Of a DNA stretch of 64,000 nucleotides, positions 7,617-27,158 are shown in pieces (position 1 is the first letter of the stretch; the number at the start of each line of letters is the position of its first letter). The DNA is from Hyphomicrobiales bacterium. GTDB taxonomy: Bacteria; Pseudomonadota; Alphaproteobacteria; Rhizobiales; Xanthobacteraceae. The position numbers were made by a program, and so were the translations under genes. The stretch lies in assembly GCA_017305665.1 (NCBI GenBank), contig JAFKKH010000012.1:187617-251616 (forward strand), read 5' to 3'. Under the pieces are notes generated by a model. The model saw only the letters and a list, made by a program, of their open reading frames with translations, did not search any database and had not been told where the DNA came from.

Positions 7617-7628
7617 GCTAGCTGCCGG

Positions 7629-8513: not shown

Positions 8514-8534
8514 GCAAATACCGGTGTTTTTGCA
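8513..8534. promoter_or_regulatory. Inverted repeat over the LysR start, possible autoregulatory site
   Basis: TGCAAA-N10-TTTGCA overlapping the initiation codon. Confidence 0.3.
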
Positions 8535-8613
8535 CAAGAGATGGGGCGTTATTGCATCGTGTGTGCCGAAATACCAGCCTTGGGCGAAGGATCATTCCAT
8601 CCGCCCAAAAACC

Positions 8614-10137: not shown

Positions 10138-10154
10138 TGTCTTGCGTTTCTTTC

Positions 10155-11288: not shown

Positions 11289-11527
11289 TGCTGTTCCGCT
11301 CCCGAATGCCCGTCTCGATCGGCGGGATATGATCCGGACGCTAGCTCATCGGTGGTACCCTCGCCAAGCTTGAGTTGGCGCCGGACAATGCGCCGGCGGG
11401 CTTGCATTTCCGTGACGCAAAATATGCACGCGTATGCGGCGCCTTTGCCTCTTGCGCTTTTATCGCGTGGGTTGAATGCTGCGCTTGAAGCGTTCGGCGA
11501 AACGTGATCGATCGGGAGACCAGCTTG

Positions 11528-13201
11528 ATGTCGGTGCCACAGCCACATTCCGCGAAACATGGCGATGCCAGCCGTAATTCTTACGATGTCGTGATCGTCG
11601 GCGCGGGTTTTGCCGGGATGTATATGCTGCATCGGCTGCGCGGGCTCGGACTCTCCGCACGGGTGTTCGAGCAGGGCAGCGATGTCGGCGGTACCTGGTA
11701 CTGGAATCGCTACCCCGGCGCGCGCTGCGATGTCGAGAGCATGCAATATTCCTATTCGTTCGACGATAAGCTGCAGCAGGAATGGGATTGGAGCGAGCGT
11801 TATGCGCCGCAGCCCGAAATCCTGAAATATGCCCAGCATGTGGCGGACCGTTTCAATCTCCGGTCCGACATCGCGTTCAATATCCGTGTCGAGTCCGCGA
11901 CGTTCGACGAGATCGCCAACACGTGGTCGGTCACGACCTCCGACGAAAAAACAGTCACGGCGAAATACGTGGTCCTCGCCACCGGCTGCCTGTCCAATGC
12001 GCGAATGCCTGACTTCAAGGGCCTGAAGGACTTCAAGGGCGAGGTCTATCACACCGGACACTGGCCGCATCATCCGGTCGATTTCACCGGCAAGCGCGTT
12101 GGCGTGATCGGGACGGGCTCGTCTGCGATCCAGTCGATTCCGGTGATTGCGGAAAAGGCGAAGCACGTCACCGTGTTCCAGCGCACGGCGAATTTCAGCA
12201 TCCCGGCGCGCAACGGTTTATTGACCGCCGAGGAACGGCAATCGTTTCGGCACAACTACCCGGAGATCCGTCGCAAGGCGCGCGAGGAGATGCGCAACGG
12301 CATCTGGCAGGAATTACCCGATCGCGGCGCGCTCGACGATGGCGACAACGAGCGCCGGGCGAAATACGAAACGCGATGGACCAAAGGTGGTCTGACATTC
12401 ACCGCCACCTACAACAATATCGCGCTGGACAAGGCCGCCAACGATACCGCTGCTGATTTTGTGCGCGACAAGATCGCCGAGATCGTCAAGGACCCGGCGA
12501 CCGCCCGGTTGCTGCAGCCGAACGATCACCCGATCGGTTCGAAGCGGATATGTGTCGATACGGAGTACTACGCGACGTTCAATCGGCCCAACGTGACGCT
12601 GGTCGATGTGAAGTCCGCGCCGATCGAGGAGATCCTGCCGAACGGCTTGCGCACGGGTGGCAAGGTGTATGAGTTCGACACGCTGGTGCTGGCGACCGGT
12701 TTCGATGCCATGACCGGATCGGTCGCGAAAATCGACATCAGGGGCCGGGACGGGCAGACGCTCAATGACAAGTGGGCCGCCGGTCCGCGCACCTATCTCG
12801 GCCTGATGAGCGAGGGTTTTCCGAATCTGTTCGTCATCACCGGCCCCGGCAGTCCGTCGGTGCTGAGCAACATGATCGTGTCGATCGAGCAGCACGTCGA
12901 CTGGATCGCTGATTGCCTCGGCTACATGCGGGATCGCGGCTTTGAGGTTATGGAGGCGAAGAGGGATGCCGAGGATAAATGGGTCGATCACGTCAACGAG
13001 GTGGCCCACGGCACGCTCTATCCGCAGGCCAATTCCTGGTACATGGGCGCGAACATTCCCGGCAAGCCGCGCATTTTCATGCCCTATATCGGAGGCGTCG
13101 GCGCCTACCGGCAGATTTGCAACGACGTCGCCGCCAAGGGCTATGAGGGGTTTGTGCTAGCGGCGACGGAGAGGCCGCGAGTGGCGGCGTCCAGCGTATA
13201 G
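11528..13201 (+). CDS. Type I Baeyer-Villiger monooxygenase (CHMO/PAMO-like)
   Basis: GAGFAG, GGTWYWNRYPGARCD, FKGEVYHTGHWP fingerprint (FxGxxxHxxxWP), second Rossmann GTGSS, catalytic Arg in KRIC; RBS GGGAGA before 11528. Confidence 0.93.
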   Translation: MSVPQPHSAKHGDASRNSYDVVIVGAGFAGMYMLHRLRGLGLSARVFEQGSDVGGTWYWNRYPGARCDVESMQYSYSFDDKLQQEWDWSERYAPQPEILKYAQHVADRFNLRSDIAFNIRVESATFDEIANTWSVTTSDEKTVTAKYVVLATGCLSNARMPDFKGLKDFKGEVYHTGHWPHHPVDFTGKRVGVIGTGSSAIQSIPVIAEKAKHVTVFQRTANFSIPARNGLLTAEERQSFRHNYPEIRRKAREEMRNGIWQELPDRGALDDGDNERRAKYETRWTKGGLTFTATYNNIALDKAANDTAADFVRDKIAEIVKDPATARLLQPNDHPIGSKRICVDTEYYATFNRPNVTLVDVKSAPIEEILPNGLRTGGKVYEFDTLVLATGFDAMTGSVAKIDIRGRDGQTLNDKWAAGPRTYLGLMSEGFPNLFVITGPGSPSVLSNMIVSIEQHVDWIADCLGYMRDRGFEVMEAKRDAEDKWVDHVNEVAHGTLYPQANSWYMGANIPGKPRIFMPYIGGVGAYRQICNDVAAKGYEGFVLAATERPRVAASSV

Positions 13202-13371: not shown

Positions 13372-14151
13372 TCAAAACGCCGTATAGCCGCCGTCGATCA
13401 CGAAGGTATCGGCGGTGTGATAGGACGACGCCTTGCTCATGAGATAGACGGCGATACCACCGAAATCCGCCGGGTCGCCGAAACGGCGCATCGGAATGCG
13501 CGGCATGACATTGGCGACGAACTTGTCGTTGGCCATGATGCCGGCCGTCATTTCGCTCTTGATCCAGCCCGGCAGGATGGCGTTCGCGGTAACGCCATGG
13601 CGCGCGAGCTCCACCGCGAGCGCGCGGACCAGCGCATTGATCGCGGCCTTGGTTGCGGCATAGTGCTCGTTGCGGGCGGTGCCGAACAGCGAGGCGAGGC
13701 TGGAGGTCGCGACGAGGCGGCCGAACGCATCGCCCGCATTGGCGCGCTCGGTCATGTGGCGCGCGGCGGCTTGAAAGACGTGAAACACGCCGTCGAGATT
13801 GGTCGCAAACATCGTGCGCCATTGCTCTTCGGTGCGGTCGATGAAGGCGTGCCGGCCTCCGCCGCCGATCCCGGCATTGGCAAAGCAGCCGTCGATCCGG
13901 CCGAAGGTATCGAGCGTCGCCGCCATCGCCGCCTTGACGGAGGCAGCGTCGCTGACGTCGCAAATCCGCGTGTCCACCTTGCCCGGCGCGCCCGCCATGG
14001 TCGCCGCGGCGGCCTTGTTCTTGTCGGCGTTGCGGCCCCAGATCGAGACGTTGCAGCCGGCTGTTGCGAGAGCCTGCGCGATGCCGAGGCCGATGCCGCC
14101 GTTGCCGCCGGTGATGACTGCCGTGCGGCCGCTGAGGTCGAAAATGCTCAT
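13372..14151 (-). CDS. Short-chain dehydrogenase/reductase (3-oxoacyl reductase-like)
   Basis: TGGNGGIG, ANAG, YAATK catalytic motif, NAILPGWI; start MSIFDLSG at 14151. Confidence 0.92.
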   Translation of the reverse strand: MSIFDLSGRTAVITGGNGGIGLGIAQALATAGCNVSIWGRNADKNKAAAATMAGAPGKVDTRICDVSDAASVKAAMAATLDTFGRIDGCFANAGIGGGGRHAFIDRTEEQWRTMFATNLDGVFHVFQAAARHMTERANAGDAFGRLVATSSLASLFGTARNEHYAATKAAINALVRALAVELARHGVTANAILPGWIKSEMTAGIMANDKFVANVMPRIPMRRFGDPADFGGIAVYLMSKASSYHTADTFVIDGGYTAF

Positions 14152-14197
14152 GAGATGCTGTCCCGTCGTTTGCCTGAGAATGACCTTGGCCAACCGG

Positions 14198-14211
14198 TTG
14201 AGAAAAATCAA
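14198..14211. promoter_or_regulatory. FNR/FixK-like box candidate
   Basis: TTGAGAAAAATCAA fits TTGA-N6-TCAA; between the divergent SDR and PaaI genes. Confidence 0.35.
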
Positions 14212-14299
14212 CGTAGGCCGGGATGGGCCTTTCGCGATCTGAACTTTTGAACTAGGTCGAAGCGAAACGTCGCCGGGCAGGGCAGGCCTTCCGGCGGAT

Positions 14300-14803
14300 A
14301 TGGACGGAGACGATGTGATGGGGAAAGTCCCGGACGGCGGACAAGGCGAGCCCGATCTCAAACCGGCCGATCCCGCCTTCGAGCAGCGCGTTCGTGACAG
14401 CTTCGCACGGCAGACGGCGATGGCGACGCTCGGAATCCGGCTCGAAAGCGTTGAGCCGGGCGTAGTCGAGATGACGATGCCGTTCGATCCGGCGCTGACG
14501 CAGCAGCACGGCTTTATCCATGCAGGAATCCTGACGGCGGGAATGGATAGCGCGTGCGGCTATGCGGCATTTTCCCTCATGCCGGCTGACGCGGCCGTCC
14601 TGACGGTCGAGTTCAAGACCAATTTGCTGGCTCCTGCGAAGGGCGACCGCTTCCTGTTTCGGGGGCGTGTTCTGAAGCCGGGACGGACCCTGACGGTTTG
14701 CGAGGGGCAGGCCTTTGCAATGACGGGGAGCAGCCGAAGGCTCGTTGCAACCATGACCGGCACGCTGATGGCGCTGTTCGACCGCGGAGGCATCGCGCAC
14801 TGA
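14300..14803 (+). CDS. PaaI-family (hotdog fold) thioesterase; start may be 14315 or 14318
   Basis: QQHGFIHAGILTAGMDSACGYA and VLTVEFKTNLLAPA motifs. Confidence 0.88.
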   Translation: MDGDDVMGKVPDGGQGEPDLKPADPAFEQRVRDSFARQTAMATLGIRLESVEPGVVEMTMPFDPALTQQHGFIHAGILTAGMDSACGYAAFSLMPADAAVLTVEFKTNLLAPAKGDRFLFRGRVLKPGRTLTVCEGQAFAMTGSSRRLVATMTGTLMALFDRGGIAH

Positions 14804-14907
14804 ATGCCCCGATGACCTCCAACGAGGTTGACGGCGGAAGGAGGAGTCTGAGAATAGGGCCGACAACAGCCGCCGTCCCGCGCGGCCAACAACATAAGAG
14901 GACGTCC

Positions 14908-15699
14908 ATGCAGTTCAAACACGTCACGCTTGATATCGACGGTGCCGTCGCCGTCCTGAAGCTCGACCATCAGGAAGTGATGAACGCGGTCTCCATGGAC
15001 ATGCTCGGCGGTCTCAGCGAGGCGCTGGATGCGATCGAGGACCGCCGCGACGAGGTACGCTGCCTGGTGTTGACCGGCGCGGGGCGGGCGTTCTGCACCG
15101 GCGCCAACCTGCAGGGCCGCAACAACCAGACACCCGGCAAGAGCAATGCGGGTCAATCGCTCGAAGTCGGATTTCATCCGTTCCTGCGCCGCCTGCGCAA
15201 CCTGCATTGTCCGATCGTCACCGCCGTGAATGGACCCGCGGCCGGCGCCGGAATGAGCTTTGCGCTGATGGGCGACATGATCCTGTGCGCGCGTTCGTCG
15301 TATTTTCTGCAGGCGTTCCGCCGTATCGGCCTCGTGCCGGACTGCGGCTCCACGTGGCTGCTGCCGCGCATGGTCGGCAAGGCGCGCTCGGTTGAGCTGT
15401 CGCTGATGGGCGAGCGGCTTCCGGCCGAGAAGGCGCTGGAATGGGGACTCGTCAACCGAGTATACGACGACGCCGCGCTGATGAACGAGGCGATGAAGCT
15501 CGCGCACGAGCTCGCCAACGGTCCGACCGTGGCGCTGTCGCTGATCCGGAAGCTCTACTGGGACAGCTCCGAGAACACGTTCGAGGATCAGCTCAACCTT
15601 GAATTCCAGTCGCAGCGTCTGGCCGGCCGGACATCGGACTTCAAGGAAGGCGTGACGGCCTTCCTCGAAAAGCGCCCTGCAAAGTTCACGGGCAAATAA
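14908..15699 (+). CDS. Crotonase-family protein, PaaG-like isomerase type
   Basis: AFCTGANL, AVNGPAAGAG; both canonical hydratase Glu positions replaced (GMSF, QAF) and Asp present in GLVPDCG; RBS GAGG. Confidence 0.85.
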   Translation: MQFKHVTLDIDGAVAVLKLDHQEVMNAVSMDMLGGLSEALDAIEDRRDEVRCLVLTGAGRAFCTGANLQGRNNQTPGKSNAGQSLEVGFHPFLRRLRNLHCPIVTAVNGPAAGAGMSFALMGDMILCARSSYFLQAFRRIGLVPDCGSTWLLPRMVGKARSVELSLMGERLPAEKALEWGLVNRVYDDAALMNEAMKLAHELANGPTVALSLIRKLYWDSSENTFEDQLNLEFQSQRLAGRTSDFKEGVTAFLEKRPAKFTGK

Positions 15700-15705
15700 G
15701 CCGCG

Positions 15706-16692
15706 ATGACGACGGAGGAACGGCTCGGCCATTGTGTCGGCACGTGGTTTCCGGGCGCGACCGGCATCGAGAACGCGAGGCGGTTATCCGGCGGCGCGAG
15801 CCAGGAGACCTGGTCGTTCGATATCGTGCATCCCGACGGCGTGACCGGCGCGATCCTGCGCCGCGCGCCGGAAGGTTATGGCGCCGCGCCCGAGCGCGCG
15901 GCAGGATTGCCTGCCGAAGCCGTGCTGATGCAGCGCGCGTATGAGGCCGGCGTGCCGTCGCCGCGCGTGCTGCACGTGCTGGTTCCCGAGGATGGCCTCG
16001 CGACTGGCTTCATCATGGATCGTGTCGCGGGCGAAACCATCCCGCGCAAGATTCTTCGCGATGACGAGTTCGCCACCGCGCGGCCCAAGCTGGCGCGACA
16101 GCTCGGCAAGGTGCTGGCTGACATCCACGGTTTGCCGCTGGCGCAACTGCCTGAACTTCGCCGCATGACTGCGGCGGCCGAAATCGCCGAACTGGACCGC
16201 GACTATCGCGCCTTCAGCGGGCCGCGACCGGTGTTCGAGCTGGCGCTGAAATGGTTGCGCGACAACGATCCCGGTCCATCCGCGGAAGTTACCTTGGTGC
16301 ATGGCGACTTCCGCCACGGCAATCTCATCATCGGTTCCGATGGCATCCGCGCGGTGCTGGACTGGGAGCTCGCGCATCTTGGCGATCCCATGGAAGACCT
16401 CGGCTGGATCTGCGTGAACTCGTGGCGGTTCGGTGAGATTGACAAGCCGGTCGGCGGCTTTGGCACGCGCGAGGAGTTGTTCGCAGGCTACGAAGCGGCG
16501 GGCCGTCGCGCTGATCCAGCGCGAGTGATGTTCTGGGAGGTGATGGGCACGCTGCGCTGGGGCGTGATGTGCTGCGGAATGATGCAGCGTTTCCGTACCT
16601 CGCCGGAGCGTTCGATCGAACGCGCGATGATCGGGCGGCGCTCATCGGAAACCGAAATCGATCTGCTGCGCCTGCTGGCGCCGCGAACCTGA
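15706..16692 (+). CDS. lvaA: APH-family phosphotransferase, LvaA-like (4-hydroxyacyl-CoA kinase candidate)
   Basis: RLSGGASQETW, HGDFRHGN catalytic loop, LDWELAHLGDPMEDLGW, WRF, FWEVMGTLRW, resembling P. putida LvaA as I recall it; followed by a DUF6285 gene. Confidence 0.72.
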   Translation: MTTEERLGHCVGTWFPGATGIENARRLSGGASQETWSFDIVHPDGVTGAILRRAPEGYGAAPERAAGLPAEAVLMQRAYEAGVPSPRVLHVLVPEDGLATGFIMDRVAGETIPRKILRDDEFATARPKLARQLGKVLADIHGLPLAQLPELRRMTAAAEIAELDRDYRAFSGPRPVFELALKWLRDNDPGPSAEVTLVHGDFRHGNLIIGSDGIRAVLDWELAHLGDPMEDLGWICVNSWRFGEIDKPVGGFGTREELFAGYEAAGRRADPARVMFWEVMGTLRWGVMCCGMMQRFRTSPERSIERAMIGRRSSETEIDLLRLLAPRT

Positions 16693-16716
16693 GACCGGGC
16701 AGGGAAGGAGAATGCC

Positions 16717-17118
16717 ATGCAGGATGATCCGACACCTCGCGAATTGATCGGAGCGGCCGCGGATTTCCTGCGCAATGAGATCATGCCGCAGATGAAGGGA
16801 CACAGCGCCTTCAAGTTGCGGGTGAGCATCAATGCATTGGATCTGGTCGCGCGGCAATTAGCTCTCGAGCCTGCGAGCGATGCGGCCGAAGCCGCGCGTC
16901 TCACAAAATTGCTTGGCCGCGATGGATCGCTCGCCGATCTCAACCGCGCGCTGGCCGAAGGCATCGCAAAAGGCAAGCTTGATCTCGAGACGTTAGGCGT
17001 CCGCGATCACTTGTGGCAGACCACGCTGGACAAACTCGCGATCGATCAGCCGAACTACGGAAGCTATAAAAGGGAGATGGAGGAAGCGAACGTTTCTGCA
17101 AAGGCACCGTCATCCTGA
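16717..17118 (+). CDS. lvaB: DUF6285 / LvaB-like small helical partner of the phosphotransferase
   Basis: PTPRELI, EAARLTKLL, LADLNRALA, TTLDKLAIDQP pattern; directly downstream of the LvaA-like gene; RBS GGAG. Confidence 0.7.
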   Translation: MQDDPTPRELIGAAADFLRNEIMPQMKGHSAFKLRVSINALDLVARQLALEPASDAAEAARLTKLLGRDGSLADLNRALAEGIAKGKLDLETLGVRDHLWQTTLDKLAIDQPNYGSYKREMEEANVSAKAPSS

Positions 17119-17209
17119 GGTGCGAGTGATCGCGCGCCTCGACGGATGGCGACGAGGAAACTGTCATCCTTCGAGGCTCGCCCAAATGGGCTCGCACCTC
17201 AGGATGACG
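17108..17209. repeat. CGTC-tagged REP/MITE-like element, family A
   Basis: CGTCATCCTGAGGTGCGAG...CTCGCACCTCAGGATGACG long terminal inverted repeat; contains the TGA stop of the DUF6285 gene. Confidence 0.88.
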
Positions 17210-17227
17210 AACGCGGTTGGAGATAAC

Positions 17228-18007
17228 TCACTTCCCCAGCCACTTCGGCGGGCGCTTCTCGGAAAACGCCTTCGGGCCCTCGATGTAGTCCTGCGAGGCG
17301 GCCATGGCCGTCACTGCCGGATAGTCGCGCTGCTCGGTGATCGCCTGTTCCAGTGACACCGCCATGCCCATCCGGATCGCCTGCTTGGAAGCGCGGATCG
17401 ACATCGGGCTGTTCTGGCAGATCGTCTCGGCCCAACGCTCTGCCGCGGCGAGCGCTTCACCTTGCGGCACCACTTCGTTGACGAAGCCGAGCTCGAGTCC
17501 CTCGCGCGCTTTCACATGTCGCGCGGTCAGGATCATGCCCATCGCGCGCTTCAGTCCGATCTGGCGTGGCAGCCGCTGCAGGCCGCCGGCAAGCGCGGCA
17601 AGGCCGACGTGCGGCTCGGGCAGGGCGAAGGTGGCGTTCTCCGAGGCGATGATGAGATCGCAGGCCAGCGCGATCTCGAACCCGCCGCCCATGGCGACGC
17701 CGTTGACCGCGGCGATGATCGGCTTGTCACAATCGAAACGCGAGGTGAGCCCCGCGAAGCCGCCCTTGTCCCAGCCCTTCTTGCCGCCGGCGGCCTGCCA
17801 CTTCAGGTCGTTGCCGGCACAGAACGCCTTGTCACCTGCGCCGGTGACGATGGCCACCCACTGGTCCGGGTCGGCAGTGAACTCGTCGAATACCTTGTTG
17901 AGCTCGAAATGCGCGTCGATATGCAGCGCGTTGTAGACCTCCGGGCGCGACAGCGTCACGATTGTGATTGGGCCCTTGCGTGTAACCTTGGAGAATTGCA
18001 GCGCCAT
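17228..18007 (-). CDS. Enoyl-CoA hydratase (CaiD-like)
   Basis: AFCAGNDL, GGGFEIAL and LPEPHVG with both catalytic Glu retained. Confidence 0.9.
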   Translation of the reverse strand: MALQFSKVTRKGPITIVTLSRPEVYNALHIDAHFELNKVFDEFTADPDQWVAIVTGAGDKAFCAGNDLKWQAAGGKKGWDKGGFAGLTSRFDCDKPIIAAVNGVAMGGGFEIALACDLIIASENATFALPEPHVGLAALAGGLQRLPRQIGLKRAMGMILTARHVKAREGLELGFVNEVVPQGEALAAAERWAETICQNSPMSIRASKQAIRMGMAVSLEQAITEQRDYPAVTAMAASQDYIEGPKAFSEKRPPKWLGK

Positions 18008-18202
18008 GTTCGCTCCCGTTGGTGTTGTTTTCGCGACGAGGAATATCCGGATTTGATCCTAGCGGACGCGACCCGGATGTTGCCATCCAAATACGCAGGT
18101 CACCGCTGTCGGGCAAGGGCCATCCGCTTGCTTGACTCGCTATGAGCTTGCCACCTTAATCGCGACAGCGACCGTAAAAACCATAATATCGGGAGTCTCG
18201 CC

Positions 18203-19477
18203 TTGGATTTTTCCCTGCCCGCCGATCTTGTCGCGTATCTCGCCGAGCTGGACCGCTTCATCGCCACGACGATCAAGCCGCTTGAAGAGCAGGACGACAA
18301 CATCCGCTTCTTCGATCACCGGCGCGAATGGGCGCGCACGGATTTCGACAACGGCGGCCTGCCGCGCCATGAATGGGAAGCGTTGCTGCGTAAGGTCAAG
18401 GATCTCGCTGACGCCGCCGGCCATCTGCGCTTCGCGATCCCGAAGCGCTATGGCGGGAAGGATGGCTCCAATCTCTGGATGGCCGTGATCCGCGAACATT
18501 TTGCGACCAAGGGCCTCGGCCTGCACAACGATTTGCAGAACGAGCATTCGATCGTCGGAAATCTCCCGATCGTCACCATGCTTGATCGTTACGGCCGCGA
18601 CGACCAGAAGGCGATGATCGAGGGATCGATCACCGGCAAATACCGCATCACCTTCGGACTGACCGAACCGGACCATGGTTCCGATGCCACCCATATGGAA
18701 ACTCGTGCGGTGCAGGCGACCCGCGACGGCAAGTCCGGCTGGGTCATCAATGGCGAGAAGATGTGGACCACCGGCATGCATATCGCATCCCACTGCGCGC
18801 TGTTCGCGCGTACCTCGGGCAACGACGGCGATGCGCGCGGCATCACCTGTTTTCTCGTGCCGGCGAACAGCAAGGGTGTGAAGGTCGAGGAATATATGTG
18901 GACCTTCAACATGCCGACCGACCATCCTCGCGTCAGTTTCACCGATGTGTTCGTGCCTGATGATGCGCTGTTCGGTGAGATCGGGCGGGGCCTGTCGCTC
19001 GCGCAGTGCTTTGTGCATGAGAACCGCATCCGGCAGGCGGCGAGTTCGCTCGGCGCCGCCGTCTATTGCATCAATGAGAGCGTGAAATATGCGCGCGAGC
19101 GAAAGCCGTTCGGCGAGGAACTGGCGCGCAATCAGGGCATTCAGTTTCCGCTTGTCGAACTCGCGACGCAGGCCGAGATGCTGCGGCTCCTGATCCGCAA
19201 GACCGCCTGGGAAATGGATCAGCTCACCCAGGCGCAGGTCGAACACACGCTGTCGGACAAGGTCTCAATGTGCAACTACTGGGCGAACCGGCTGTGCTGC
19301 GAGGCGGCCGACCGCGCGATGCAGGTGCACGGCGGTATGGGCTATTCGCGCCACAAGCCGTTCGAACACATCTACCGCCACCATCGCCGCTATCGCATCA
19401 CCGAAGGCAGCGAGGAAATCCAGAAGCGCAAGGTCGCCGGATTCCTGTTCGGCTACATGGGGGCGGGGAAGCATTGA
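18203..19477 (+). CDS. Acyl-CoA dehydrogenase (TTG start)
   Basis: FGLTEPDHGSD, INGEKMWTTG, QVHGGMGY, RITEGSEEI motifs. Confidence 0.92.
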   Translation: MDFSLPADLVAYLAELDRFIATTIKPLEEQDDNIRFFDHRREWARTDFDNGGLPRHEWEALLRKVKDLADAAGHLRFAIPKRYGGKDGSNLWMAVIREHFATKGLGLHNDLQNEHSIVGNLPIVTMLDRYGRDDQKAMIEGSITGKYRITFGLTEPDHGSDATHMETRAVQATRDGKSGWVINGEKMWTTGMHIASHCALFARTSGNDGDARGITCFLVPANSKGVKVEEYMWTFNMPTDHPRVSFTDVFVPDDALFGEIGRGLSLAQCFVHENRIRQAASSLGAAVYCINESVKYARERKPFGEELARNQGIQFPLVELATQAEMLRLLIRKTAWEMDQLTQAQVEHTLSDKVSMCNYWANRLCCEAADRAMQVHGGMGYSRHKPFEHIYRHHRRYRITEGSEEIQKRKVAGFLFGYMGAGKH

Positions 19478-20340
19478 TGGAGCATCTGGACGTTCACGCC
19501 AACGGGTCCCGCTTTCACGTCGCGCGGATCGGGCAGGGACGTCCGCTGCTTTTGCTGCACGGCTGGCCGGAGTTCTGGTTGACGTGGGAACCGGTCATGC
19601 AGCGGCTCGCCGACAGGTTTCAACTGATCGCGCCGGACCTGCACGGCTTCGGCGACAGCGACAAGCCGGATGGTCCCTATGGGCCGGATCGTCATGCGCG
19701 GGACATGCTGGCGTTGCTCGATGCCCTCAAGCTGGATCGCGTCGGCGTTGTCGGCCATGACGTTGGCGGCGCGGTGATGCAGCCGATGGCGCGGCAAGCG
19801 CCGGAACGATTGGCCGGCCTGTTCTTCTTTGGTTTCGTTTATCCCGGCATTGGTGCGCGGATGGGTGCGCCGGATCGTCTCAACGAGATCTGGTATCAGT
19901 CGTTCAACCAGATGCCGATGGCGCCGGAAATGGTCGGTGCGACACGTGACACATGCCGCGCTTATATCGGGCACTTCCTGCGCCACTGGGCGCATCGCAA
20001 GGACGCCTTCGATGACGTGCTGGAGGTGTTCGTCGACAATTTCATGAAGCCGGGAAATCTCGCCGGTGGCTTCGCGCACTATCGCGCCTCGCATGCCGGG
20101 CGCATGGCCATGTTGAGAGGCGATGCGCCAGCCTTGCCGCCGATCACGGTGCCGACCTGCGTGCGCTGGGCCGAGCACGATCCGATCTTTCCCTATGCGT
20201 GGACCGACCGGCTTAGCGGGACATTCGGCAACCTCGACCTCGCGCCGTTTCCCGGCGCCGGCCACTTCGCGCATCGCGAAACGCCGGATCGCGCGGCGGC
20301 CGAGGTCGCGAAATTCTTCGATCGCATTTGGTCGGGCTAG
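19477..20340 (+). CDS. Alpha/beta hydrolase, epoxide hydrolase/dehalogenase class
   Basis: HGWP oxyanion motif, GHDVGG Asp nucleophile, WYQ and HYR tyrosines, GHF; TGATG coupling to the ACAD. Confidence 0.88.
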   Translation: MEHLDVHANGSRFHVARIGQGRPLLLLHGWPEFWLTWEPVMQRLADRFQLIAPDLHGFGDSDKPDGPYGPDRHARDMLALLDALKLDRVGVVGHDVGGAVMQPMARQAPERLAGLFFFGFVYPGIGARMGAPDRLNEIWYQSFNQMPMAPEMVGATRDTCRAYIGHFLRHWAHRKDAFDDVLEVFVDNFMKPGNLAGGFAHYRASHAGRMAMLRGDAPALPPITVPTCVRWAEHDPIFPYAWTDRLSGTFGNLDLAPFPGAGHFAHRETPDRAAAEVAKFFDRIWSG

Positions 20341-20349
20341 GCCGATGCC

Positions 20350-21930
20350 CTAGTTCACCTGCCGATCCTTGCCCGCCCAATAGGGATCGCGCAGGTTGCG
20401 GCGGAGAATCTTGCCGGATGCGTTGCGCGGTAGCGCCGGAATGAAGTCGACCGTCTTCGGCGTCTTGAATGCGGCGATCCGTTCACGGGCGAACTTGATG
20501 ATGTCGACGGCGGTCGCATCCTTGCCCGGCTTCATCACCACGACGGCCTTGACGGCCTCGCCCCACTGGTCGTCCGGCACGCCGATGACGGCGGCCTCGG
20601 CGACATCGGGATGATCGCAGATCGCGCTCTCCACTTCGGCGGGATAGATGTTTTCGCCGCCGGAGATGATCATGTCCTTGATGCGGTCGTGAATGTAGAG
20701 ATAGCCGTCCTCGTCGAGATAGCCGGCGTCGCCGGTGCGTAGCCAGTTGTCCTTGTCGAGCGTCTTTGCGGTCGCCTCCGGCAGATTCCAGTAGCCGACC
20801 ATGTTGGAGCCCGAGCGCGTCGCGATCTCGCCGACTTCGCGGGGCGGCAGGCGATTGCCGTCGGCATCGAGAATGGCGATCTCGACGCCGGGCAGCGGCT
20901 TGCCGGCCGAGCGCATCCGCTCCAGCCCCTCAACATGATCCTCCGGTGGCAGCGCGACGATGGTGCCGGTGGTCTCGGTCATGCCGTAGAGTTGGACGAA
21001 GCCGCACTTGAAGACGTCGATACATTCCTTCAGCAGCGCGGCCGGGATCGGCGAAGCGCCGTACAGCATGTAGCGCAACCGCGAGAAGTCGATCTCTCGG
21101 GCGCGCGGCTGCCGCACCACGAACTGCATCGCGGCGGGCACCATGAATAGCTTCGAGATCTTCGAATTTTCGAAGAAGTCCAGGATCTTTGTGGGGTCAA
21201 ACTCACGCGCGATGACGCCCTTGGCGCCGTGGTAGATGCCGACCGCGCCCCAGCCGGAACCGCCGATGTGAAAGATCGGCATCGCCACCAGCGACACGTC
21301 GCTTTCCATCCATTTGTTCCAGTCCGGCGCGTCGCCGCCGCGGCCCGCGCGCACCAGCGACAGGAAATTGTAGTGCGACAGCATCGCGCCTTTCGGCTTG
21401 CCGGTCGTGCCTGATGTATAGAGCTGGATCGCGACGTTGTTCTCGTCGACGGGCACCTTCGGATCGTCGCTTGGCTGCGCATCGCGCCACGCGGCAAAAT
21501 CCTTCCACTCCGGTGCGCCGCCTTCGGTGGTCATGATCGCGCGCACGCTCTTGAGTTGTGGCTGGATGGCGCGGGCCTGCTCGATGAATTCGGGACCGAC
21601 GAACAGGATCGCCGCCTTGCAGTCCTCGACGATATAGGCGATCTCCGGACCCGCAAGTCGCCAGTTCACCGGCGCCATGACGACGCCGGCTTTCATCGCG
21701 CCGAACAGCAGCTCGAAATAGTAGTCGCTGTTCTTGCCAAGGTAGGCGATGTGCTCGTTCGGCTTGACGCCGGCCGCGATCAGCGCGCGGGCGACGCGGT
21801 TGGTGTTGCGGTCGAAGTCGGCAAAGCTGGTGACGCGGCCTTCGAATTCGAAGGCCGTAGCATTGCCTCGCGCCTTGCCCTGAACGCGAACCACGTCGGC
21901 AAGTGTCGAGGCTTCCTCGATGGCAGGCAT
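20350..21930 (-). CDS. Long-chain fatty acid-CoA ligase
   Basis: [51 protein letters not shown]; start MPAIEE at 21930. Confidence 0.93.
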
Positions 21931-22082
21931 GTTTCCCCTCACGTGTTCTTGTTTGCCGCAGTGTGAGGCCAACCTTTCGGGAAAACAATAGCGGTTGCCG
22001 TTCGCCGCATTGCAACCCGCTCGCGATTTCCCCGTTGTATTTGGGATCGGCTCGGGCAGGATCGGCGGTGTGGGGCAAATCC

Positions 22083-23582
22083 ATGACGGACATCTGGGCA
22101 CGAAAGTCGCTGACGGTTCTGACTGCGGAAGGCGCGGCGGAAGATGGGGATGCAGCCGCCCGGCCGATGCGGCGAACACTGACGGCCCTCAATCTGGTGA
22201 CACTCGGCATTGGCGGTATCGTGGGTGCCGGCATCTTTGTCCTGACCGGGCACGCGGCTGCCGCTAACGCCGGCCCCGCGGTCACCTTGTCTTTCATTTT
22301 CGGTGCAACGGCATGTGCATTTGCGGCCCTCTGCTACGCCGAGATGGCCTCGATGGTCCCGATCTCGGGCAGCGCCTATACCTACGCTTATGCGACGCTC
22401 GGCGAACTCATCGCGTGGATCATCGGCTGGGACCTGATCCTCGAATATGCCGTCGGTGCCATTGCCGTCGCGATCGGCTGGTCCGGTTATGCCGTCAGCT
22501 TCCTTCGCGATTTGGGTATCGTCATCCCGAGCCGTTTCGCGTCTGCGCCGCTGGCCTTTGACGCCACGAAGCATGTGTGGTCGGTGACCGGCGCAATTAT
22601 CAACCTGCCGGCGATGGCCGTCATCGTCGCCATCACGGCGTTGCTGGTGGTCGGCATTCGCGAGTCGGCCCGATTCAATAACGTCATTGTTGCGGTGAAG
22701 CTGACCGTCATTGTCTTGTTCATCATCTTCTGCACCCATGCGTTCAGCACCGCGAACTGGGTTACGGCCAGCAATCCCCAGGGCGCTTTCATCCCGCCAA
22801 ACAAGGCACCGGGCGTGTTCGGCTGGAGCGGGGTGATCCGCGGCGCGGCGGTGGTGTTCTTCGCTTACATCGGATTCGATGCAGTCTCGACCGCGGCGCA
22901 AGAGACCAAAGTGCCCAGCCGCGACGTGCCCATTGGAATCCTGTTGTCGCTGGTGATCTGCACGCTGCTCTACGTTGCAGTCGGTCTGGTTCTGACCGGC
23001 ATCGTGCCGTTCGATCGGCTCAATGTTGCAGACCCGATCGCAGTGGGAATCGATAACGCGGGAGTCGGCTGGCTGTCGCCATTCATCAAGCTCGGGATTG
23101 TTGCCGGCCTGACGTCGGTCATCCTCGTCATGCTGCTGGCGCAGCCGCGCATCTTCCGCGCCATGGCGCACGATGGTCTGCTGCCGAAAGGCGCTGCCGC
23201 GATTCATCCGCGGTTTCAGACGCCCTATGTGGCGACGATTGCGACCGGGCTCGTCACCACGCCGCTTGCCGGTCTGCTGCCGATCGGTCTCGTGGGTGAA
23301 CTCGTCAGCATCGGAACGCTGTTCGCGTTCGCAATCGTCTGCTGTGGCGTTCTCGTGCTGCGCATCCGTCACCCCAACGAAAAGCGACCCTTCCGGGCGC
23401 CGGCGATCTGGTTTGTGGCGCCTGCCGGCGTCGTGACGTCGTGCTTCCTGATGTTCGGCCTGCCGCTTGATACCTGGATTAGGCTGGTGGTCTGGCTCGC
23501 GATCGGACTTGTCATTTATGCGGCATACGGTGCACGCCACTCCCGCATCGCTGCCTACGGCAATGCGGATAGCCGTGGCTAA
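22083..23582 (+). CDS. APC-family amino acid permease (cationic amino acid transporter-like)
   Basis: [44 protein letters not shown]; multiple TM segments. Confidence 0.92.
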
Positions 23583-24454
23583 CCGCGCTTGGCGCGATCC
23601 TTCTCGTTCTGTGCCTTGATGGCGTCGCGGGCCTGCTCCCAGTCGGCGTCCTTCCAGTCCCGTAACTGATAGAAGTTGCCGCCCATGGCGAGCGCCTGGC
23701 CGCCGTCCATGGCGATGGTCTCGCCGTTGATCCAGTCGCAGCCGCCGGAAATCAGGAAGGTCGCGAGGTTCTGCAATTCCTCCATGGTGCCGACGCGGCC
23801 CATCGGGTTCATCGCCTTGGTGCGTGCGCCGGCTTCATCGCCCGGCTTGATGCGCTTGCTCATGCCCTCGGTCGGAATTTCGCCCGGCGCGATGGTGTTG
23901 AGGCGGATGCCGTATTTGCCCCACTCGGTCGCGAGCGACATGGTCATGGCGTGGATCGCCGACTTGCTCATGGCCGACGGCACCACATAGGGGCTGCCGT
24001 TGCGTACCCATGTCACGGTGATCGAGACGACATTCCCCGGCAACTTGGCGGCGATCCATCGCTTGCCGACTGCGTGGGTCACATAGAACGTGCCATGCAT
24101 GACGATGTTGGCGACGGCGTCGAAGCCGCGCGGTGTCAGGTCCTCGCTGCGCGAGATGAAGTTGCCCGCCGCGTTGTTGATGAGATCGGTGAGAGGGCCT
24201 TCGGCCGTGAAGATCGCTTCGATCATGTGATCGACCGCGGCGGCGTCGCGGATATCGACGCCATGGCTGACGACGCGGCCGCCATATTCGGCCATCAGTT
24301 CGGTCGCGGTCTCGTCGCAGACGATCTTGCGGCGGCCGCAGATGTGCACCATGGCGCCGAGGCTGAGAAATCGCGCGGCCATCGCCTTGCCCAGGCCGGT
24401 GCCGCCGCCCGTGACAAGAATATTTCGGCCCGCAAGAAGCTGTGGGTTGAACAT
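23579..24454 (-). CDS. SDR, 2,4-dienoyl-CoA reductase-like
   Basis: [16 protein letters not shown], no canonical YxxxK (PSAMSK), NTIAPGEI, typical of the DECR subgroup. Confidence 0.78.
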
Positions 24455-24490
24455 GGATGGTCCATGATTTTGGAGGAAGAGTCTTCTTAA

Positions 24491-24506
24491 TTAGTTGATT
24501 GACTAA
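24491..24506. promoter_or_regulatory. Candidate operator between the divergent SDR and crotonase genes
   Basis: TTAGTT-GATT-GACTAA near-palindrome in an AT-rich divergent promoter region. Confidence 0.35.
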
Positions 24507-24565
24507 AACCGGAGAACGGCTTTCTGTAAAGCTGAAAACAGGTAAAAACCTCAGGAGATGTCTTT

Positions 24566-25378
24566 ATGAATGATCGCGTGTCGGTATCGATGTCTGACGG
24601 CGTGGCGGATGTCCGCCTGGTCCGTGCGGACAAGATGAATGCGCTCGATGCCGCGATGTTCGAGGCTCTTGTGGACACCAGCGATCGGCTCAGCCGCGAG
24701 AAGGGCCTGCGTGCCGTCGTGCTCTCGGGCGAGGGCAAGGCGTTTTGTGCTGGCCTCGACATGGGGCGTTTTGCTGCCATGAAGGAAAATGGCGGTAACG
24801 GGATAGCGGGCGGCGAGAAGCGCGACCTTACGGCGCGGACCTATGGCAAGGCGAATTTCCCGCAACAGGCGGTGTGGGGCTGGCGGCAATTGCCGGTACC
24901 GGTGATCGCCGCCATCCACGGCGTGGCGTTCGGCGGCGGCTTCCAGCTCGCACTCGGCGCCGACATGCGTTACCTCGCGCCGGACGCGCGCATGTCGATC
25001 ATGGAGATCAAGTGGGGTCTCGTGCCCGACATGGCGGGAACGCCGATCCTCGCGAGCCTCGTGCGCGACGATATCCTGCGCGAATTGACCTACACCGGCC
25101 GCATCTTCTCGGCGCAGGAGGCCATGAGCTACGGCCTGGCGACGCAGATTTGCGACGATCCGCGTAGCGTTGCGCTTAGTGTGGCGCTGGAGATCGCGAA
25201 CAAAAGTCCGCATGCGATTCGTGCCGCCAAGCGGATGCTGAACAAGCTGTCGGGCGATCCAGGTCCCGCGCTGCTCGCGGAGTCCGTCGAGCAGCAGGCG
25301 CTGATCGGCGCGCCGAACCAGACCGAGGCGGTCCGCGCCAATCTGGAAAAGCGTGCACCGAAGTTTGCCGAGGTGTGA
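24566..25378 (+). CDS. Enoyl-CoA hydratase/isomerase family protein
   Basis: AFCAGLDM, GGGFQLAL, MEIKWGLVPDM; RBS AGGAG. Confidence 0.9.
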   Translation: MNDRVSVSMSDGVADVRLVRADKMNALDAAMFEALVDTSDRLSREKGLRAVVLSGEGKAFCAGLDMGRFAAMKENGGNGIAGGEKRDLTARTYGKANFPQQAVWGWRQLPVPVIAAIHGVAFGGGFQLALGADMRYLAPDARMSIMEIKWGLVPDMAGTPILASLVRDDILRELTYTGRIFSAQEAMSYGLATQICDDPRSVALSVALEIANKSPHAIRAAKRMLNKLSGDPGPALLAESVEQQALIGAPNQTEAVRANLEKRAPKFAEV

Positions 25379-25386
25379 GGGCAAAT

Positions 25387-25491
25387 CATCATCCTGAGGT
25401 GCGAGTCCTTGCGCGCCTCGAAAGAGGCGCACTAACTTGATTTCGTCATCCTTCGAGGCTCGCTGAATTCGGCTCGCTCCTTGGAATGACG
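25387..25491. repeat. Degenerate family A CGTC-type element
   Basis: CATCATCCTGAGGTGCGAG...CATCCTTCGAGGCTCG...GGAATGACG, clearly homologous to 17108-17209. Confidence 0.8.
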
Positions 25492-25511
25492 GTCAAACAA
25501 GAACAAAAGCG

Positions 25512-27059
25512 ATGACGGAAACTCCCATGCTCTTCCACGGCATCATCTCCGGCGAGCGCCGCCGCAGTTTCCCTGAGGTAACCGACCGCGTCAGCCGTCT
25601 TGCCGGCGGGTTGCAGACTCTCGGCGTCGGGCCCGGCGACAGCGTCTGCGTCGTCATGCGCAACGACATCGCCTTCATCGAGGCCGCCTACGCGGTGATG
25701 ACGCTCGGCGCCTATGCGGTGCCGGTGAACTGGCACTTCAAGCCGGAGGAGGTGAACTACGTCATCAAGGATTCCGGCACGCGCGTCGTGATCGGCCACG
25801 CCGACATGCTCAATCTGCTTGGCGATGCGATCCCCGCCGGCGTCACGGTGCTGAGCGTGCCGACGCCACCGGAGATTCTCGCGAGCTACAAGATCGATCG
25901 CGACCTGCTGGGAGCGCCGCGCGGCGCGCTCGATCTCGAGACATGGTTGGCGGCGCAGAAGCCTTACGCCGGCCCGGCCCGGCCGCAGCCGCAGAACATG
26001 ATCTACACCTCGGGCACCACAGGCCACCCCAAGGGCGTACGCCGTACCACGCCGACGCCCGACCAGGCGAAATCGCAGGAAGCCATGCGTGCCATGATCT
26101 ACGGCCTCAAGCCCGGCATTCGCGGCCTGCTGCCGGGACCGCTTTATCATTCGGCACCGAACTCGTTCGGGTTGCGGGCAGGGCGGCTCGGCGGCGCGCT
26201 GGTGCTGATGCCGCGGTTCGATGCGGAAGTATTTTTGCAACTGGTCGAGCGCGAAAAGATCGACACCGTCTTCATGGTGCCGACCATGTTCATCCGCCTG
26301 ATGAAACTGCCGGAAGCGGTGCGCGCAAAATATGATGTATCGTCGCTGCGCCATATCATTCATGCGGCCGCTCCGTGTCCCGCCGATGTCAAGGGCGCCA
26401 TGATCGAGTGGTGGGGGCCGGTGATCTATGAATTCTACGGCTCGACCGAGTCCGGGGCCGTTACCTTCGCCAATTCCGAGGATGCGCTGAAGAAGCCCGG
26501 CACCGTCGGCAAGATCTCGCCCGGCGCGGAGCTGAAATTCATCGGCGATGACGGGCGCGAACTGCCGCAGGGCGAGATCGGCGAAATCTATTCGCGGATC
26601 AAGAGCCATCCGGACTTCACCTATCACAACAAGCCGGAGAAGCGCGCCGAGATCGAGCGCGAAGGCTTCATCACGTCCGGCGATGTCGGTTACATCGACG
26701 CCGACGGTTATGTGTTCATCTGCGACCGCAAGCGCGACATGGTGATTTCAGGCGGCGTCAACATCTATCCGGCGGAGATCGAGGCCGCGCTGCATGCCGT
26801 GCCGGGCGTCCACGACTGCGCCGTGTTCGGCATTCCCGACGATGAATTCGGCGAGGCGCTGATGGCGGTGGTCGAGCCGCAGCCGAGCGTCCGGCTCGAT
26901 GAAGACCACATTCGCAGGCAATTGAAGCGATCGCTCGCGGACTACAAGGTGCCAAAGCACATCGAGATCGGTACCAATCTGCCGCGCGAGGATTCCGGAA
27001 AGATCTTCAAGCGGCGCCTGCGCGATCCCTATTGGGAGCGGGCGGGGCGAAGGATTTAG
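25512..27059 (+). CDS. Acyl-CoA synthetase (AMP-forming)
   Basis: YTSGTTGHPKG, YGSTESG, SGDVG, DRKRDMVISGGVNIYPAEIE, PREDSGKI. Confidence 0.93.
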   Translation: MTETPMLFHGIISGERRRSFPEVTDRVSRLAGGLQTLGVGPGDSVCVVMRNDIAFIEAAYAVMTLGAYAVPVNWHFKPEEVNYVIKDSGTRVVIGHADMLNLLGDAIPAGVTVLSVPTPPEILASYKIDRDLLGAPRGALDLETWLAAQKPYAGPARPQPQNMIYTSGTTGHPKGVRRTTPTPDQAKSQEAMRAMIYGLKPGIRGLLPGPLYHSAPNSFGLRAGRLGGALVLMPRFDAEVFLQLVEREKIDTVFMVPTMFIRLMKLPEAVRAKYDVSSLRHIIHAAAPCPADVKGAMIEWWGPVIYEFYGSTESGAVTFANSEDALKKPGTVGKISPGAELKFIGDDGRELPQGEIGEIYSRIKSHPDFTYHNKPEKRAEIEREGFITSGDVGYIDADGYVFICDRKRDMVISGGVNIYPAEIEAALHAVPGVHDCAVFGIPDDEFGEALMAVVEPQPSVRLDEDHIRRQLKRSLADYKVPKHIEIGTNLPREDSGKIFKRRLRDPYWERAGRRI

Positions 27060-27109: not shown

Positions 27110-27158
27110 ACCAAAAACTTGCGACTGGAGAGTCGTGGAGTTCCTGGGAGCCAGCGCC

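Follow-up and report, generated by a model that had tools for sequence, protein, structure and literature searches.

A conserved acyl-CoA dehydrogenase-family partner of an LvaA/LvaB-like kinase that lacks the hallmarks of known phosphoacyl-CoA eliminases

Introduction

What becomes of a phosphorylated acyl-CoA when the flavoenzyme encoded beside the kinase lacks the residues associated with phosphate elimination? This question is raised by a gene cluster in a 64,000-nucleotide stretch of DNA (the window: contig JAFKKH010000012.1, positions 187,617 to 251,616 of the forward strand, assembly GCA_017305665.1) from a Hyphomicrobiales bacterium of the Xanthobacteraceae, a soil alphaproteobacterium, in which genes for an APH-fold kinase and a DUF6285 protein lie close to that of an acyl-CoA dehydrogenase (ACAD)-family flavoenzyme, termed here ACAD-A. 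Coordinates are those of the window, except where a related locus (L) is named.

Kinase and ACAD are known to work together in the Pseudomonas operon for levulinate, lvaABCDE (the lva operon; Rand et al., 2017, cited from PMC6692424), and in mammalian ACAD10 and ACAD11, which follow the same logic of a 4-hydroxyacyl-CoA kinase coupled to an ACAD-fold flavoenzyme (PMC12440821; PMC11342911). The hallmarks of ACAD10/11 and LvaC are a catalytic Asp (D753), an HCMR motif (H634 and R637) and an upstream Arg (R626), which Rashan et al. describe as essential or conserved for phosphate elimination (PMC12440821). A flavin "rebound" mechanism was suggested by the same authors (PMC12440821), while Paquay et al. 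proposed that a 2,4-dienoyl-CoA stays bound to the enzyme and is reduced again by FADH2 (PMC11342911). Why an Asp is used, what the HCMR motif does and whether the dienoyl intermediate is formed are openly unresolved matters (PMC12440821; PMC11342911).

A first-pass annotation of the window proposed a variant route, in which an ACAD with an ordinary catalytic Glu dehydrogenates the 4-phosphoacyl-CoA, loss of phosphate gives a 2,4-dienoyl-CoA, and a reductase and an isomerase encoded in the same region return it to beta-oxidation. The analysis reported here bears out the unusual nature of the ACAD and the presence of both crotonase types, and it lends no support to the 2,4-dienoyl-CoA leg. The stretch is best explained as two separate units, Unit 1 (13372-19477), which contains the kinase and ACAD-A, and Unit 2 (20350-27059), which contains the reductase.

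Results

The kinase pair

The GC content of the window is 63%, so long spurious open reading frames (ORFs) are common, and real genes were told from them by matches to Pfam and NCBIfam profiles. The APH-fold kinase (15706-16692, +; Pfam APH, 114.5 bits) contains the catalytic loop HGDFRHGN and a DWE motif, and its best solved relatives are 3dxp and the kinase domain of ACAD11. It is 34% identical (E 1.7e-45) to LvaA of the annotated lva operon on Pseudomonas aeruginosa plasmid p12939-PER, while another APH protein of the source genome, encoded on contig C21 and described below, matches LvaA with an E-value of only 2e-18. The DUF6285 gene (16717-17118, +; Pfam DUF6285, 114 bits) begins 24 nt after that of the kinase. 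The plasmid operon (L172) consists of lvaR and, set off from it, lvaA, lvaB, lvaC, lvaD, lvaE, a DUF485 gene and a symporter gene, and the protein named LvaB by PGAP is itself a DUF6285 protein (85 bits), to which the window protein is 29% identical. Hence DUF6285 is the LvaB family and the APH and DUF6285 proteins form an LvaA/LvaB-type kinase with an LvaB-family small subunit, which is predicted to phosphorylate a hydroxyacyl-CoA, most likely at C4. A literature search on DUF6285 found no paper. APH-DUF6285 fusions of 443 residues occur in sphingomonads, and locus L151 (8650-9981) encodes the two as one 443-residue protein, whose ORF cluster spans 39 distant loci.

ACAD-A and the eliminase hallmarks

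ACAD-A (18203-19477, +) is assigned from its motifs, its linkage and its place in the ACAD tree as a Glu-type ACAD-family flavoenzyme. The ORF ends in HHRRYRITEGSEEIQK and contains the motif RITEG with its Glu, as had been noted in the first-pass annotation. In HMMER alignments this Glu401 (codon 19403-19405) falls in the column of the catalytic Glu that solved ACADs carry in their I-[YW]-E-G motif. The Asp-containing RIYDG that was given there for enzymes of the LvaC/ACAD11 type is present in the plasmid lvaC product as FRIYDGPSEVH, and the corresponding motif of mouse ACAD11 is RLADGPDEVH.

When ACAD-A was aligned with LvaC and with the ACAD11-type enzyme of the source genome itself, all hallmark residues were found to be replaced. 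Glu401 occupies the position of the catalytic Asp (Glu376 of medium-chain ACAD, MCAD; D753 of mouse ACAD11), Gln278 and Ser281 occupy those of H634 and R637 on helix G, where ACAD-A reads R-Q278-A-A-S281 and ACAD11, LvaC and the LvaC-type clade read H-C-M-R, and Phe270, which is invariant in a nine-sequence alignment of ACAD-A proteins, stands at the position of R626. An H-E-N-R sequence of ACAD-A was considered as an equivalent of HCMR and rejected, as the shared Arg is R631 of ACAD11 and the HCMR columns hold RQAAS. These alignments support the conclusion that the ACAD adjoining the LvaA/LvaB-like kinase is, as far as its residues predict, not of the LvaC/ACAD11 type. Since the Asp, the HCMR motif and the upstream Arg are all missing, the step that follows phosphorylation must differ in some respect.

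In several ways ACAD-A resembles ordinary enzymes of the MCAD and short-chain ACAD (SCAD) type, as it has the Glu base and, with the motifs for binding FAD and CoA, all three ACAD domains, of which Pfam recognises M and C and, weakly, N. Its AlphaFold2 model (pLDDT 91.9) has a generic ACAD fold, and the top query-normalised TM-score in a fold search, 0.80 to the ACAD11-like 4hr3, has generic ACADs within 0.02 of it. A hydrophobic acyl pocket and independence from a kinase, as expected of an ordinary ACAD, are however not what its sequence and distribution suggest, given its strict co-occurrence with the kinase (see below) and 51 polar positions that are fixed in ACAD-A and different in other ACADs, several of them on helix G and around Glu401. 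These invariants include Gln278, in the column of ACAD11 H634, and residues in HNDLQNEHS, MPTDHPR, FVHENRIRQ, SRHKPFEHIYRHHRRYRITEG and an N-terminal insert of 20 residues (RFFDHRRE...) that none of the other ACADs compared has.

Linkage and co-inheritance of the kinase and ACAD-A

A scan of species-representative genomes revealed at least 584 relatives, including those of Bradyrhizobium, Afipia, Chelatococcus, Novosphingobium, Sphingomonas, Erythrobacter, Caulobacter, Burkholderiaceae, Bordetella and Ectothiorhodospiraceae. Neighbouring genes were counted at the best 80 of these loci, 25 of which are near (inside the Bradyrhizobium-like family of the source organism) and 55 outside it. An APH gene adjoins that of ACAD-A at 21 of 21 near loci and at 38 of 48 distant loci with enough flanking sequence. 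Across the Alpha-, Beta- and Gammaproteobacteria ACAD-A forms a tight clade with identities of 65-94%, compared with 39-84% for APH. Outside the family (55 loci) the neighbour census found nothing recurrent beyond APH and DUF6285, except a crotonase (12/55), a ligase (9/55) and a generic short-chain dehydrogenase (SDR; 9/55).

Co-occurrence was assessed in 200 genomes of the same family and five of the same genus, with presence and absence calls that rest on single queries in the sampled genomes. DUF6285 was found in 42 of the 200, in its window-type form in 36, and ACAD-A in 33, all of which are among those 36. The three genomes with the kinase but no ACAD-A are G086, an assembly of 260 contigs and one other genome. 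In G086 (L043, 11385-12622) ACAD-A appears as three tblastn pieces (62-83% identity) beside an intact kinase pair and may be a broken gene. Where ACAD-A stands alone the genome has DUF6285 elsewhere (5/5), and where the kinase pair stands alone the genome has ACAD-A elsewhere (5/5, 68-73% identity), so that the coupling to a kinase that marks ACADs of the LvaC and ACAD10/11 types is seen for ACAD-A as well, either in adjacency or within the genome. Genome G002 has lost both the kinase pair and ACAD-A and retains the surrounding genes (ECH1, ECH2, ACS1, SDR2 and ECH3, all described below). A six-gene core (SDR1, ECH1, APH, DUF6285, ECH2 and ACAD-A, with ECH1, APH and DUF6285 contiguous on one strand) is complete in ten of the 20 family flanks inspected, and others contain APH, DUF6285 and ACAD-A with fewer partners. 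In these flanks ACAD-A is 81-94% identical in most and 62-70% in three divergent cases, and APH is 60-83% identical in most. ACAD-A is thus very probably a conserved partner of the LvaA/LvaB-like kinase.

Three pairings of kinase and ACAD

Kinase-linked ACADs fall into three pairings. The ACAD10/11 type has its own APH without LvaB, and its ACAD has the Asp and HCMR; the LvaC type goes with LvaA and LvaB, usually together with an SDR and an acyl-CoA synthetase (ACS), and has the Asp, HCMR and R[IL][YV]DG; ACAD-A goes with an LvaA/LvaB-like kinase and has the Glu and no HCMR. In other Proteobacteria the LvaC-type order is SDR, Asp/HCMR ACAD, APH-DUF6285 and ACS, and ACAD-A occupies the LvaC slot of such lva-type operons. 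In one genus of the window's family (g7; L044 and L051) an LvaC-type Asp ACAD stands beside APH, with the DUF6285 match lying inside an open frame of 476-481 residues.

In a maximum-likelihood tree of 45 ACADs, comprising the paralogs of the source genome and the three kinase-linked types, each type forms a clade with support of 100/100, the ACAD11-like group being weaker (92/50). ACAD-A is sister to the LvaC and ACAD11 types combined (ultrafast bootstrap, UFBoot, 95 / SH-aLRT 72), and the three types group with a further paralog that has an IADG motif (99/98). The stem of ACAD-A is long (1.19) and its internal branches are very short, as would fit a function that changed long ago and has been under strong constraint since. 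As all other members of this superclade have the Asp, ACAD-A looks to have reverted to Glu, provided that the root lies outside.

Asp-type enzymes elsewhere in the genome

When the whole genome was scanned for the motif, two ACADs with ...DGPDEVH came up. The enzyme on contig C21 (L002, 6351-7589) is of the ACAD11 type, with 451 bits to mouse ACAD11, the sequence GRLGPGRIHHCMR that contains HCMR, and RLADGPDEVH. The first-pass annotation had allowed that an Asp-type enzyme elsewhere might carry out the elimination, and this one does exist, but it has its own APH 47 nt downstream (Pfam APH, 192.6 bits; the pair spans 6351-8695). A family III CoA-transferase is encoded upstream, there is no LvaB-type gene, and the pair is a split counterpart of ACAD10/11. 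In each of the five same-family genomes searched, its ortholog (87-91% identity) is at a different site from that of the ACAD-A cluster; the five same-genus genomes sampled are without ACAD-A and DUF6285.

In Bradyrhizobium an additional ACAD11-type paralog adjoins SDR1 on the same strand (L034 of G036, 5099-6454, -; also in L088, L096, L097, L100, L102-L104 and L106). With the C21 enzyme it shares 54-56% identity, it has HCMR and RFADGPDEVH, and no ACAD10/11-type kinase of its own was found nearby, so that both kinds of ACAD are present around one LvaAB-like kinase. The nearest outgroup of the three kinase-linked clades is the IADG paralog of the source genome, on contig C4 (L173, 6272-7516), which has a catalytic Asp (IADGTNEI) and no HCMR. 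It lies next to an amidohydrolase_2 protein and a dienelactone hydrolase; no kinase was found beside it. The plasmid LvaC (L172) is about 31% identical to the ACAD11-type enzyme of the source genome and scores 195-200 bits to ACAD11 structures, whereas the identity of LvaC to ACAD10/11 quoted in PMC11342911, 56-62%, is much above the value for the p12939-PER protein.

Companion genes of Unit 1

The FabG-like SDR1 (13372-14136, -; Pfam adh_short_C2, 201 bits) is divergent from ECH1, beside which it is conserved at 81-89% identity as a member of the six-gene core. It is 31% identical to the plasmid LvaD and is a candidate for an LvaD-like 4-oxoacyl-CoA reductase or a 3-hydroxyacyl-CoA dehydrogenase.

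The two crotonases have the features that were ascribed to them in the first-pass annotation. ECH1 (14908-15699, +) is a PaaG-like crotonase of the isomerase type, which matches NCBIfam PRK05981 (487.6 bits, above the cut-off of 351) and is under the cut-off for PaaG itself (278.9 against 345). Its best solved relative is Escherichia coli PaaG (4fzw_C, 244 bits), and it retains the Asp of the GLVPD motif (D136 of Thermus PaaG). At the positions that we take to be those of the hydratase residues E144 and E164 of rat enoyl-CoA hydratase it has Ser and Phe. ECH2 (17228-18007, -) is, by its alignment to 3r0o, a canonical enoyl-CoA hydratase, in which GGGFE and LPEP contain the two catalytic Glu, and within the family it is conserved at 79-93% identity between DUF6285 and ACAD-A. 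These data support the conclusion that the core conserved within the Bradyrhizobium-like family includes a crotonase of the isomerase type and one of the hydratase type.

The DECR1-like reductase belongs to a separate unit

SDR2 (23579-24454, -) was described in the first-pass annotation as resembling DECR, the reductase of 2,4-dienoyl-CoA, and its similarity and motif agree with this. Against the mitochondrial DECR1 of mouse and human (1w6u and 7ucw) it scores 213-216 bits over residues 2-280, and it has S-x3-K in place of Y-x3-K, in the motif PSAMSK, and it is best regarded as a DECR1-like enoyl- or dienoyl-thioester reductase. Its score to the NCBIfam 2,4-dienoyl-CoA reductase PRK07677 (240.8) is under the cut-off of 318. 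All 39 SDR2 orthologs read have a Trp at the position of DECR Tyr199, presumably an active-site residue. On one side of SDR2 lies ACS1, an acyl-CoA synthetase (20350 to about 21915, -, start coordinate approximate; NCBIfam PRK06187, 658 bits), and on the other, divergent from it, the dienoyl-CoA-isomerase-like crotonase ECH3 (24566-25378, +; NCBIfam PRK07509, 357.8 bits), followed by the acyl-CoA synthetase ACS2 (25512-27059, +; NCBIfam PRK12406, 918.8 bits) and phosphoenolpyruvate (PEP) carboxylase (PEPC; 27135-29945, +). In alignments to 4og1 and 2vre/1dci a Glu and an Asp of ECH3 match what we take to be E196 and D204 of delta3,5-delta2,4-dienoyl-CoA isomerase, with a Gln at D176.

The source genome has about 26 ACAD, 28 crotonase and at least 47 SDR paralogs, but only two DECR-like genes, so that the adjacency of SDR2 to the cluster is not a matter of random placement. 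It is explained by synteny at the family level and not by co-inheritance with the kinase. Orthologs of SDR2 are present in 66 of the 200 family genomes, namely all 36 with the window-type kinase and 30 without it. In genomes of several genera where the kinase cluster is megabases away (G038, G133 and G200) SDR2 is still between ACS1 and ECH3-ACS2-PEPC, and where SDR2 and the kinase are separated ACS1 stays with SDR2 (L053-L055). ECH3 is always beside SDR2 where the latter is at least 70% identical. Within 10 kb of ACAD-A an SDR2-like gene is present at 15 of the 25 loci inside the family and at none of the 55 outside it; in distant genomes with ACAD-A the DECR-like genes are unlinked. In one genome, G387, no match to the SDR2 query was found at E<=1e-30, and long ORFs of the old yellow enzyme (OYE) family that could be FadH are present. 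ACS1 and SDR2 together with the divergent ECH3, ACS2 and PEPC therefore constitute a separately conserved unit, and its reductase, isomerase and two ligases make it a self-sufficient auxiliary beta-oxidation unit. Unit 2 would handle unsaturated acyl-CoAs in general rather than provide a dedicated step of Unit 1.

Other genes of the region

The locus has relatives in Bradyrhizobium, Rhodopseudomonas, Afipia and Tardiphaga, and its closest copy is in a metagenome bin (L087, 96% ACAD identity). DUF6285, ACAD-A and SDR2 were found in none of the five same-genus genomes sampled, which makes the region 13372-27059 patchy within the genus, by gain here or loss in the others. Several genes lie around or within the two units. 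A Baeyer-Villiger-type flavin monooxygenase (BVMO; 11504-13201, +; Pfam FMO-like/Pyr_redox_3) is outside the invariant core and near the cluster in 8 of the 20 family loci, with orthologs of 74-78% identity in L034, L035, L038, L039, L048, L049 and others. Upstream of it are genes for a thiolase-like protein with a TLP1 C-terminal domain and a flavoenzyme similar to nitronate monooxygenase and FabK (8614-11288, -), which may carry the acyl-CoA theme further. A 4HBT-fold thioesterase gene upstream of ECH1 (14300-14803, +; Pfam 4HBT, 44.8 bits) is a local insertion in the source genome, since the gap between SDR1 and ECH1 is only about 300 bp in the Bradyrhizobium-type L034. That a PaaI-like thioesterase stands beside a PaaG-like crotonase is curiously reminiscent of the paa operon.

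Two further genes are inserted around ACS1 in the source genome. The alpha/beta hydrolase (about 19534-20340, start approximate, +; Pfam Abhydrolase_1, 88.8 bits), a possible esterase or lactonase, is shared, of the 80 loci, with L087 alone, the closest relative. An amino-acid permease (about 22173-23582, start approximate, +; Pfam AA_permease_2, 175 bits) lies between ACS1 and SDR2; no ortholog was found in any related locus, the sole match being one of 25% in L131.

Discussion

The module described here follows the logic of the lva operon and of ACAD10/11 with a different, uncharacterised clade of ACAD. Like the lva operon, it ties an APH-fold kinase with a DUF6285/LvaB subunit to an ACAD-family flavoenzyme, with an SDR and an acyl-CoA ligase nearby; unlike it, the core adds two crotonases and has no lvaR, lvaF or lvaG. 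ACAD-A is only 28% identical to LvaC and forms a clade of its own, having RITEG, RQAAS and Phe where LvaC has RIYDG, HCMR and the upstream Arg. In contrast to ACAD10/11, the proteins are separate rather than fused and there is an extra LvaB-type subunit, while D753, R626, H634 and R637 of ACAD11 are all replaced and the score of ACAD-A to ACAD11 is 90 bits, compared with 451 bits for the C21 enzyme. A literature search on phosphoacyl-CoA returned nothing on a Glu-type partner of the kinase. As for the known auxiliary enzymes, SDR2 resembles DECR1 along its whole length and has S-x3-K, ECH3 retains two of the three isomerase acids and ECH1 is of the isomerase type; yet SDR2, a predicted reductase, has the Trp in place of Tyr199 and does not reach the NCBIfam equivalog cut-off, and SDR2 and ECH3 are inherited independently of the kinase.

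How might such a module work? Unit 1 would be a levulinate-like hydroxyacyl-CoA module in which APH and DUF6285 phosphorylate a hydroxyacyl-CoA, most likely at C4, and the phosphorylated thioester passes to ACAD-A, where Glu401 would serve as the base that takes the alpha-proton. ACAD-A might then remove the phosphate by transient reduction of the flavin and return of the hydride, giving an enoyl-CoA, whose double bond ECH1 would shift to the 2-position if needed; ECH2 would hydrate the 2-enoyl-CoA to the 3-hydroxyacyl-CoA, and SDR1 would act as a 4-oxo reductase or a 3-hydroxy dehydrogenase. That ACAD-A eliminates the phosphate itself is suggested by its place in the LvaC slot, its kinship to the eliminases, its dependence on the kinase and the lack of any further conserved neighbour outside one family. 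Several findings weigh against this proposal. ACAD-A lacks all three eliminase hallmarks, D753, HCMR and R626 (PMC12440821), and scores 158 bits to CarC, an ordinary dehydrogenase, compared with 90 bits to ACAD11; SH-aLRT support for placing it with the eliminases is only moderate, and it sits on a long stem; the core of ECH1, ECH2 and SDR1 is confined to one family; and the related genomes are not independent samples. Furthermore, ACAD11-type Asp enzymes that could act in trans are encoded in the source genome and in all five distant ACAD-A genomes tested, and in Bradyrhizobium beside the cluster itself. Elimination by ACAD-A is a prediction; that ACAD-A processes the phosphorylated acyl-CoA itself, with ECH1 and ECH2 finishing the conversion in the Bradyrhizobium-like family, is the reading that we favour, at about even odds.

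The ordinary Glu base and the absence of an HCMR site would suit a net dehydrogenase that passes its electrons to electron-transferring flavoprotein (ETF), after which the 4-phospho-2-enoyl-CoA would lose phosphate to give a free 2,4-dienoyl-CoA, to be reduced in trans by SDR2 or a FadH-type enzyme to the 3-enoyl-CoA, isomerised by ECH1 and hydrated by ECH2. This is chemically reasonable and mirrors the enzyme-bound 2,4-dienoyl-CoA proposed by Paquay et al. (PMC11342911), and the family core includes the isomerase-type ECH1; an SDR2 ortholog is found in all 36 genomes with the window-type kinase and is adjacent at 15 of the 25 near loci, and FadH-like long OYE proteins appear where no SDR-type match was found. 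The distribution of SDR2 is nested, however, and follows phylogeny: it keeps ACS1, ECH3, ACS2 and PEPC as neighbours when the kinase cluster is megabases away, it is present in 30 sampled genomes without the kinase, and beyond the family its relatives are unlinked (none within 10 kb at the 55 distant loci, none at E<=1e-30 in G387), while its Trp and its score below the NCBIfam cut-off also count against a role as a typical DECR. The genomic support for a free dienoyl-CoA route is family synteny only, and the dienoyl-CoA leg through SDR2, the part of the first-pass proposal that found no support, is the weakest part of the finding; we regard the route as unlikely. A related and quite improbable reading is that ACAD-A catalyzes a naturally "split" form of the ACAD10/11 reaction, in which the phosphorylated acyl-CoA is oxidised and loses its phosphate, and ordinary auxiliary beta-oxidation enzymes receive a free 2,4-dienoyl-CoA or 3-enoyl-CoA from it. 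If true, this would expose as a stable metabolite an intermediate that was only postulated by Paquay et al., and it would account both for the reversion from Asp to Glu and for an HCMR motif that was never acquired.

The elimination could instead be the task of an Asp/HCMR enzyme encoded elsewhere, either that on C21 or the Bradyrhizobium paralog beside SDR1, while ACAD-A, as an ordinary dehydrogenase, would catalyse a neighbouring step such as the oxidation of the shortened or isomerised acyl-CoA. The C21 protein is a bona fide ACAD11-type enzyme, such enzymes recur in the distant genomes, the extra paralog abuts the Bradyrhizobium cluster, and the raw scores of ACAD-A are closer to those of generic dehydrogenases than to ACAD11. 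Nevertheless, the C21 enzyme has its own adjacent APH, its ortholog is away from the ACAD-A cluster in all five family genomes searched and the five same-genus genomes sampled are without ACAD-A and DUF6285; moreover, ACAD-A is found only in genomes with an LvaAB-like kinase and is lost together with it, neither of which an ordinary dehydrogenase would need, and it holds the LvaC slot of lva-type operons. This reading too seems improbable. Somewhat less so, though doubtful, is that the kinase and ACAD-A act on another phosphorylated thioester, one that differs in the position of the hydroxyl, in stereochemistry or in having a branched or carboxylated chain, and that the active site reflects that substrate or its outcome. 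The replacement of all phosphate-binding residues of LvaC and ACAD11 alongside 51 other polar positions fixed throughout the clade, the N-terminal insert unique among the ACADs compared and the variable neighbours outside the family would be in keeping with this, and a second specificity is plausible in a genome that already has a canonical ACAD11-type pair. Yet the kinase is a clear LvaA/LvaB homolog, the same type of kinase pairs with LvaC-type enzymes elsewhere, the recurrent neighbours (SDR, ACS and crotonase) match the logic of lva, and there is no positive evidence for any other substrate.

For annotation, DUF6285 can be read as the LvaB family, and the DECR-like gene adjoining this cluster should not be read as a member of the pathway. 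For the enzymology of ACAD10/11 and LvaC, a large bacterial sister clade that goes with the same kind of kinase, has a Glu and lacks the phosphate-site residues is a ready-made comparison enzyme, in that ACAD-A would either carry out the same reaction with another active site or stop at an intermediate. A practical test organism is at hand in Rhodopseudomonas palustris, since its ACAD-A is 88-90% identical to that of the window and it grows on gamma-valerolactone via 4-hydroxyvalerate (PMC9843451), a biomass solvent for whose use by this organism no downstream genes have been named so far. More widely, these are likely genes for the use of 4-hydroxy acids and gamma-lactones in Bradyrhizobium, Rhodopseudomonas, sphingomonads, Caulobacter and Burkholderiales.

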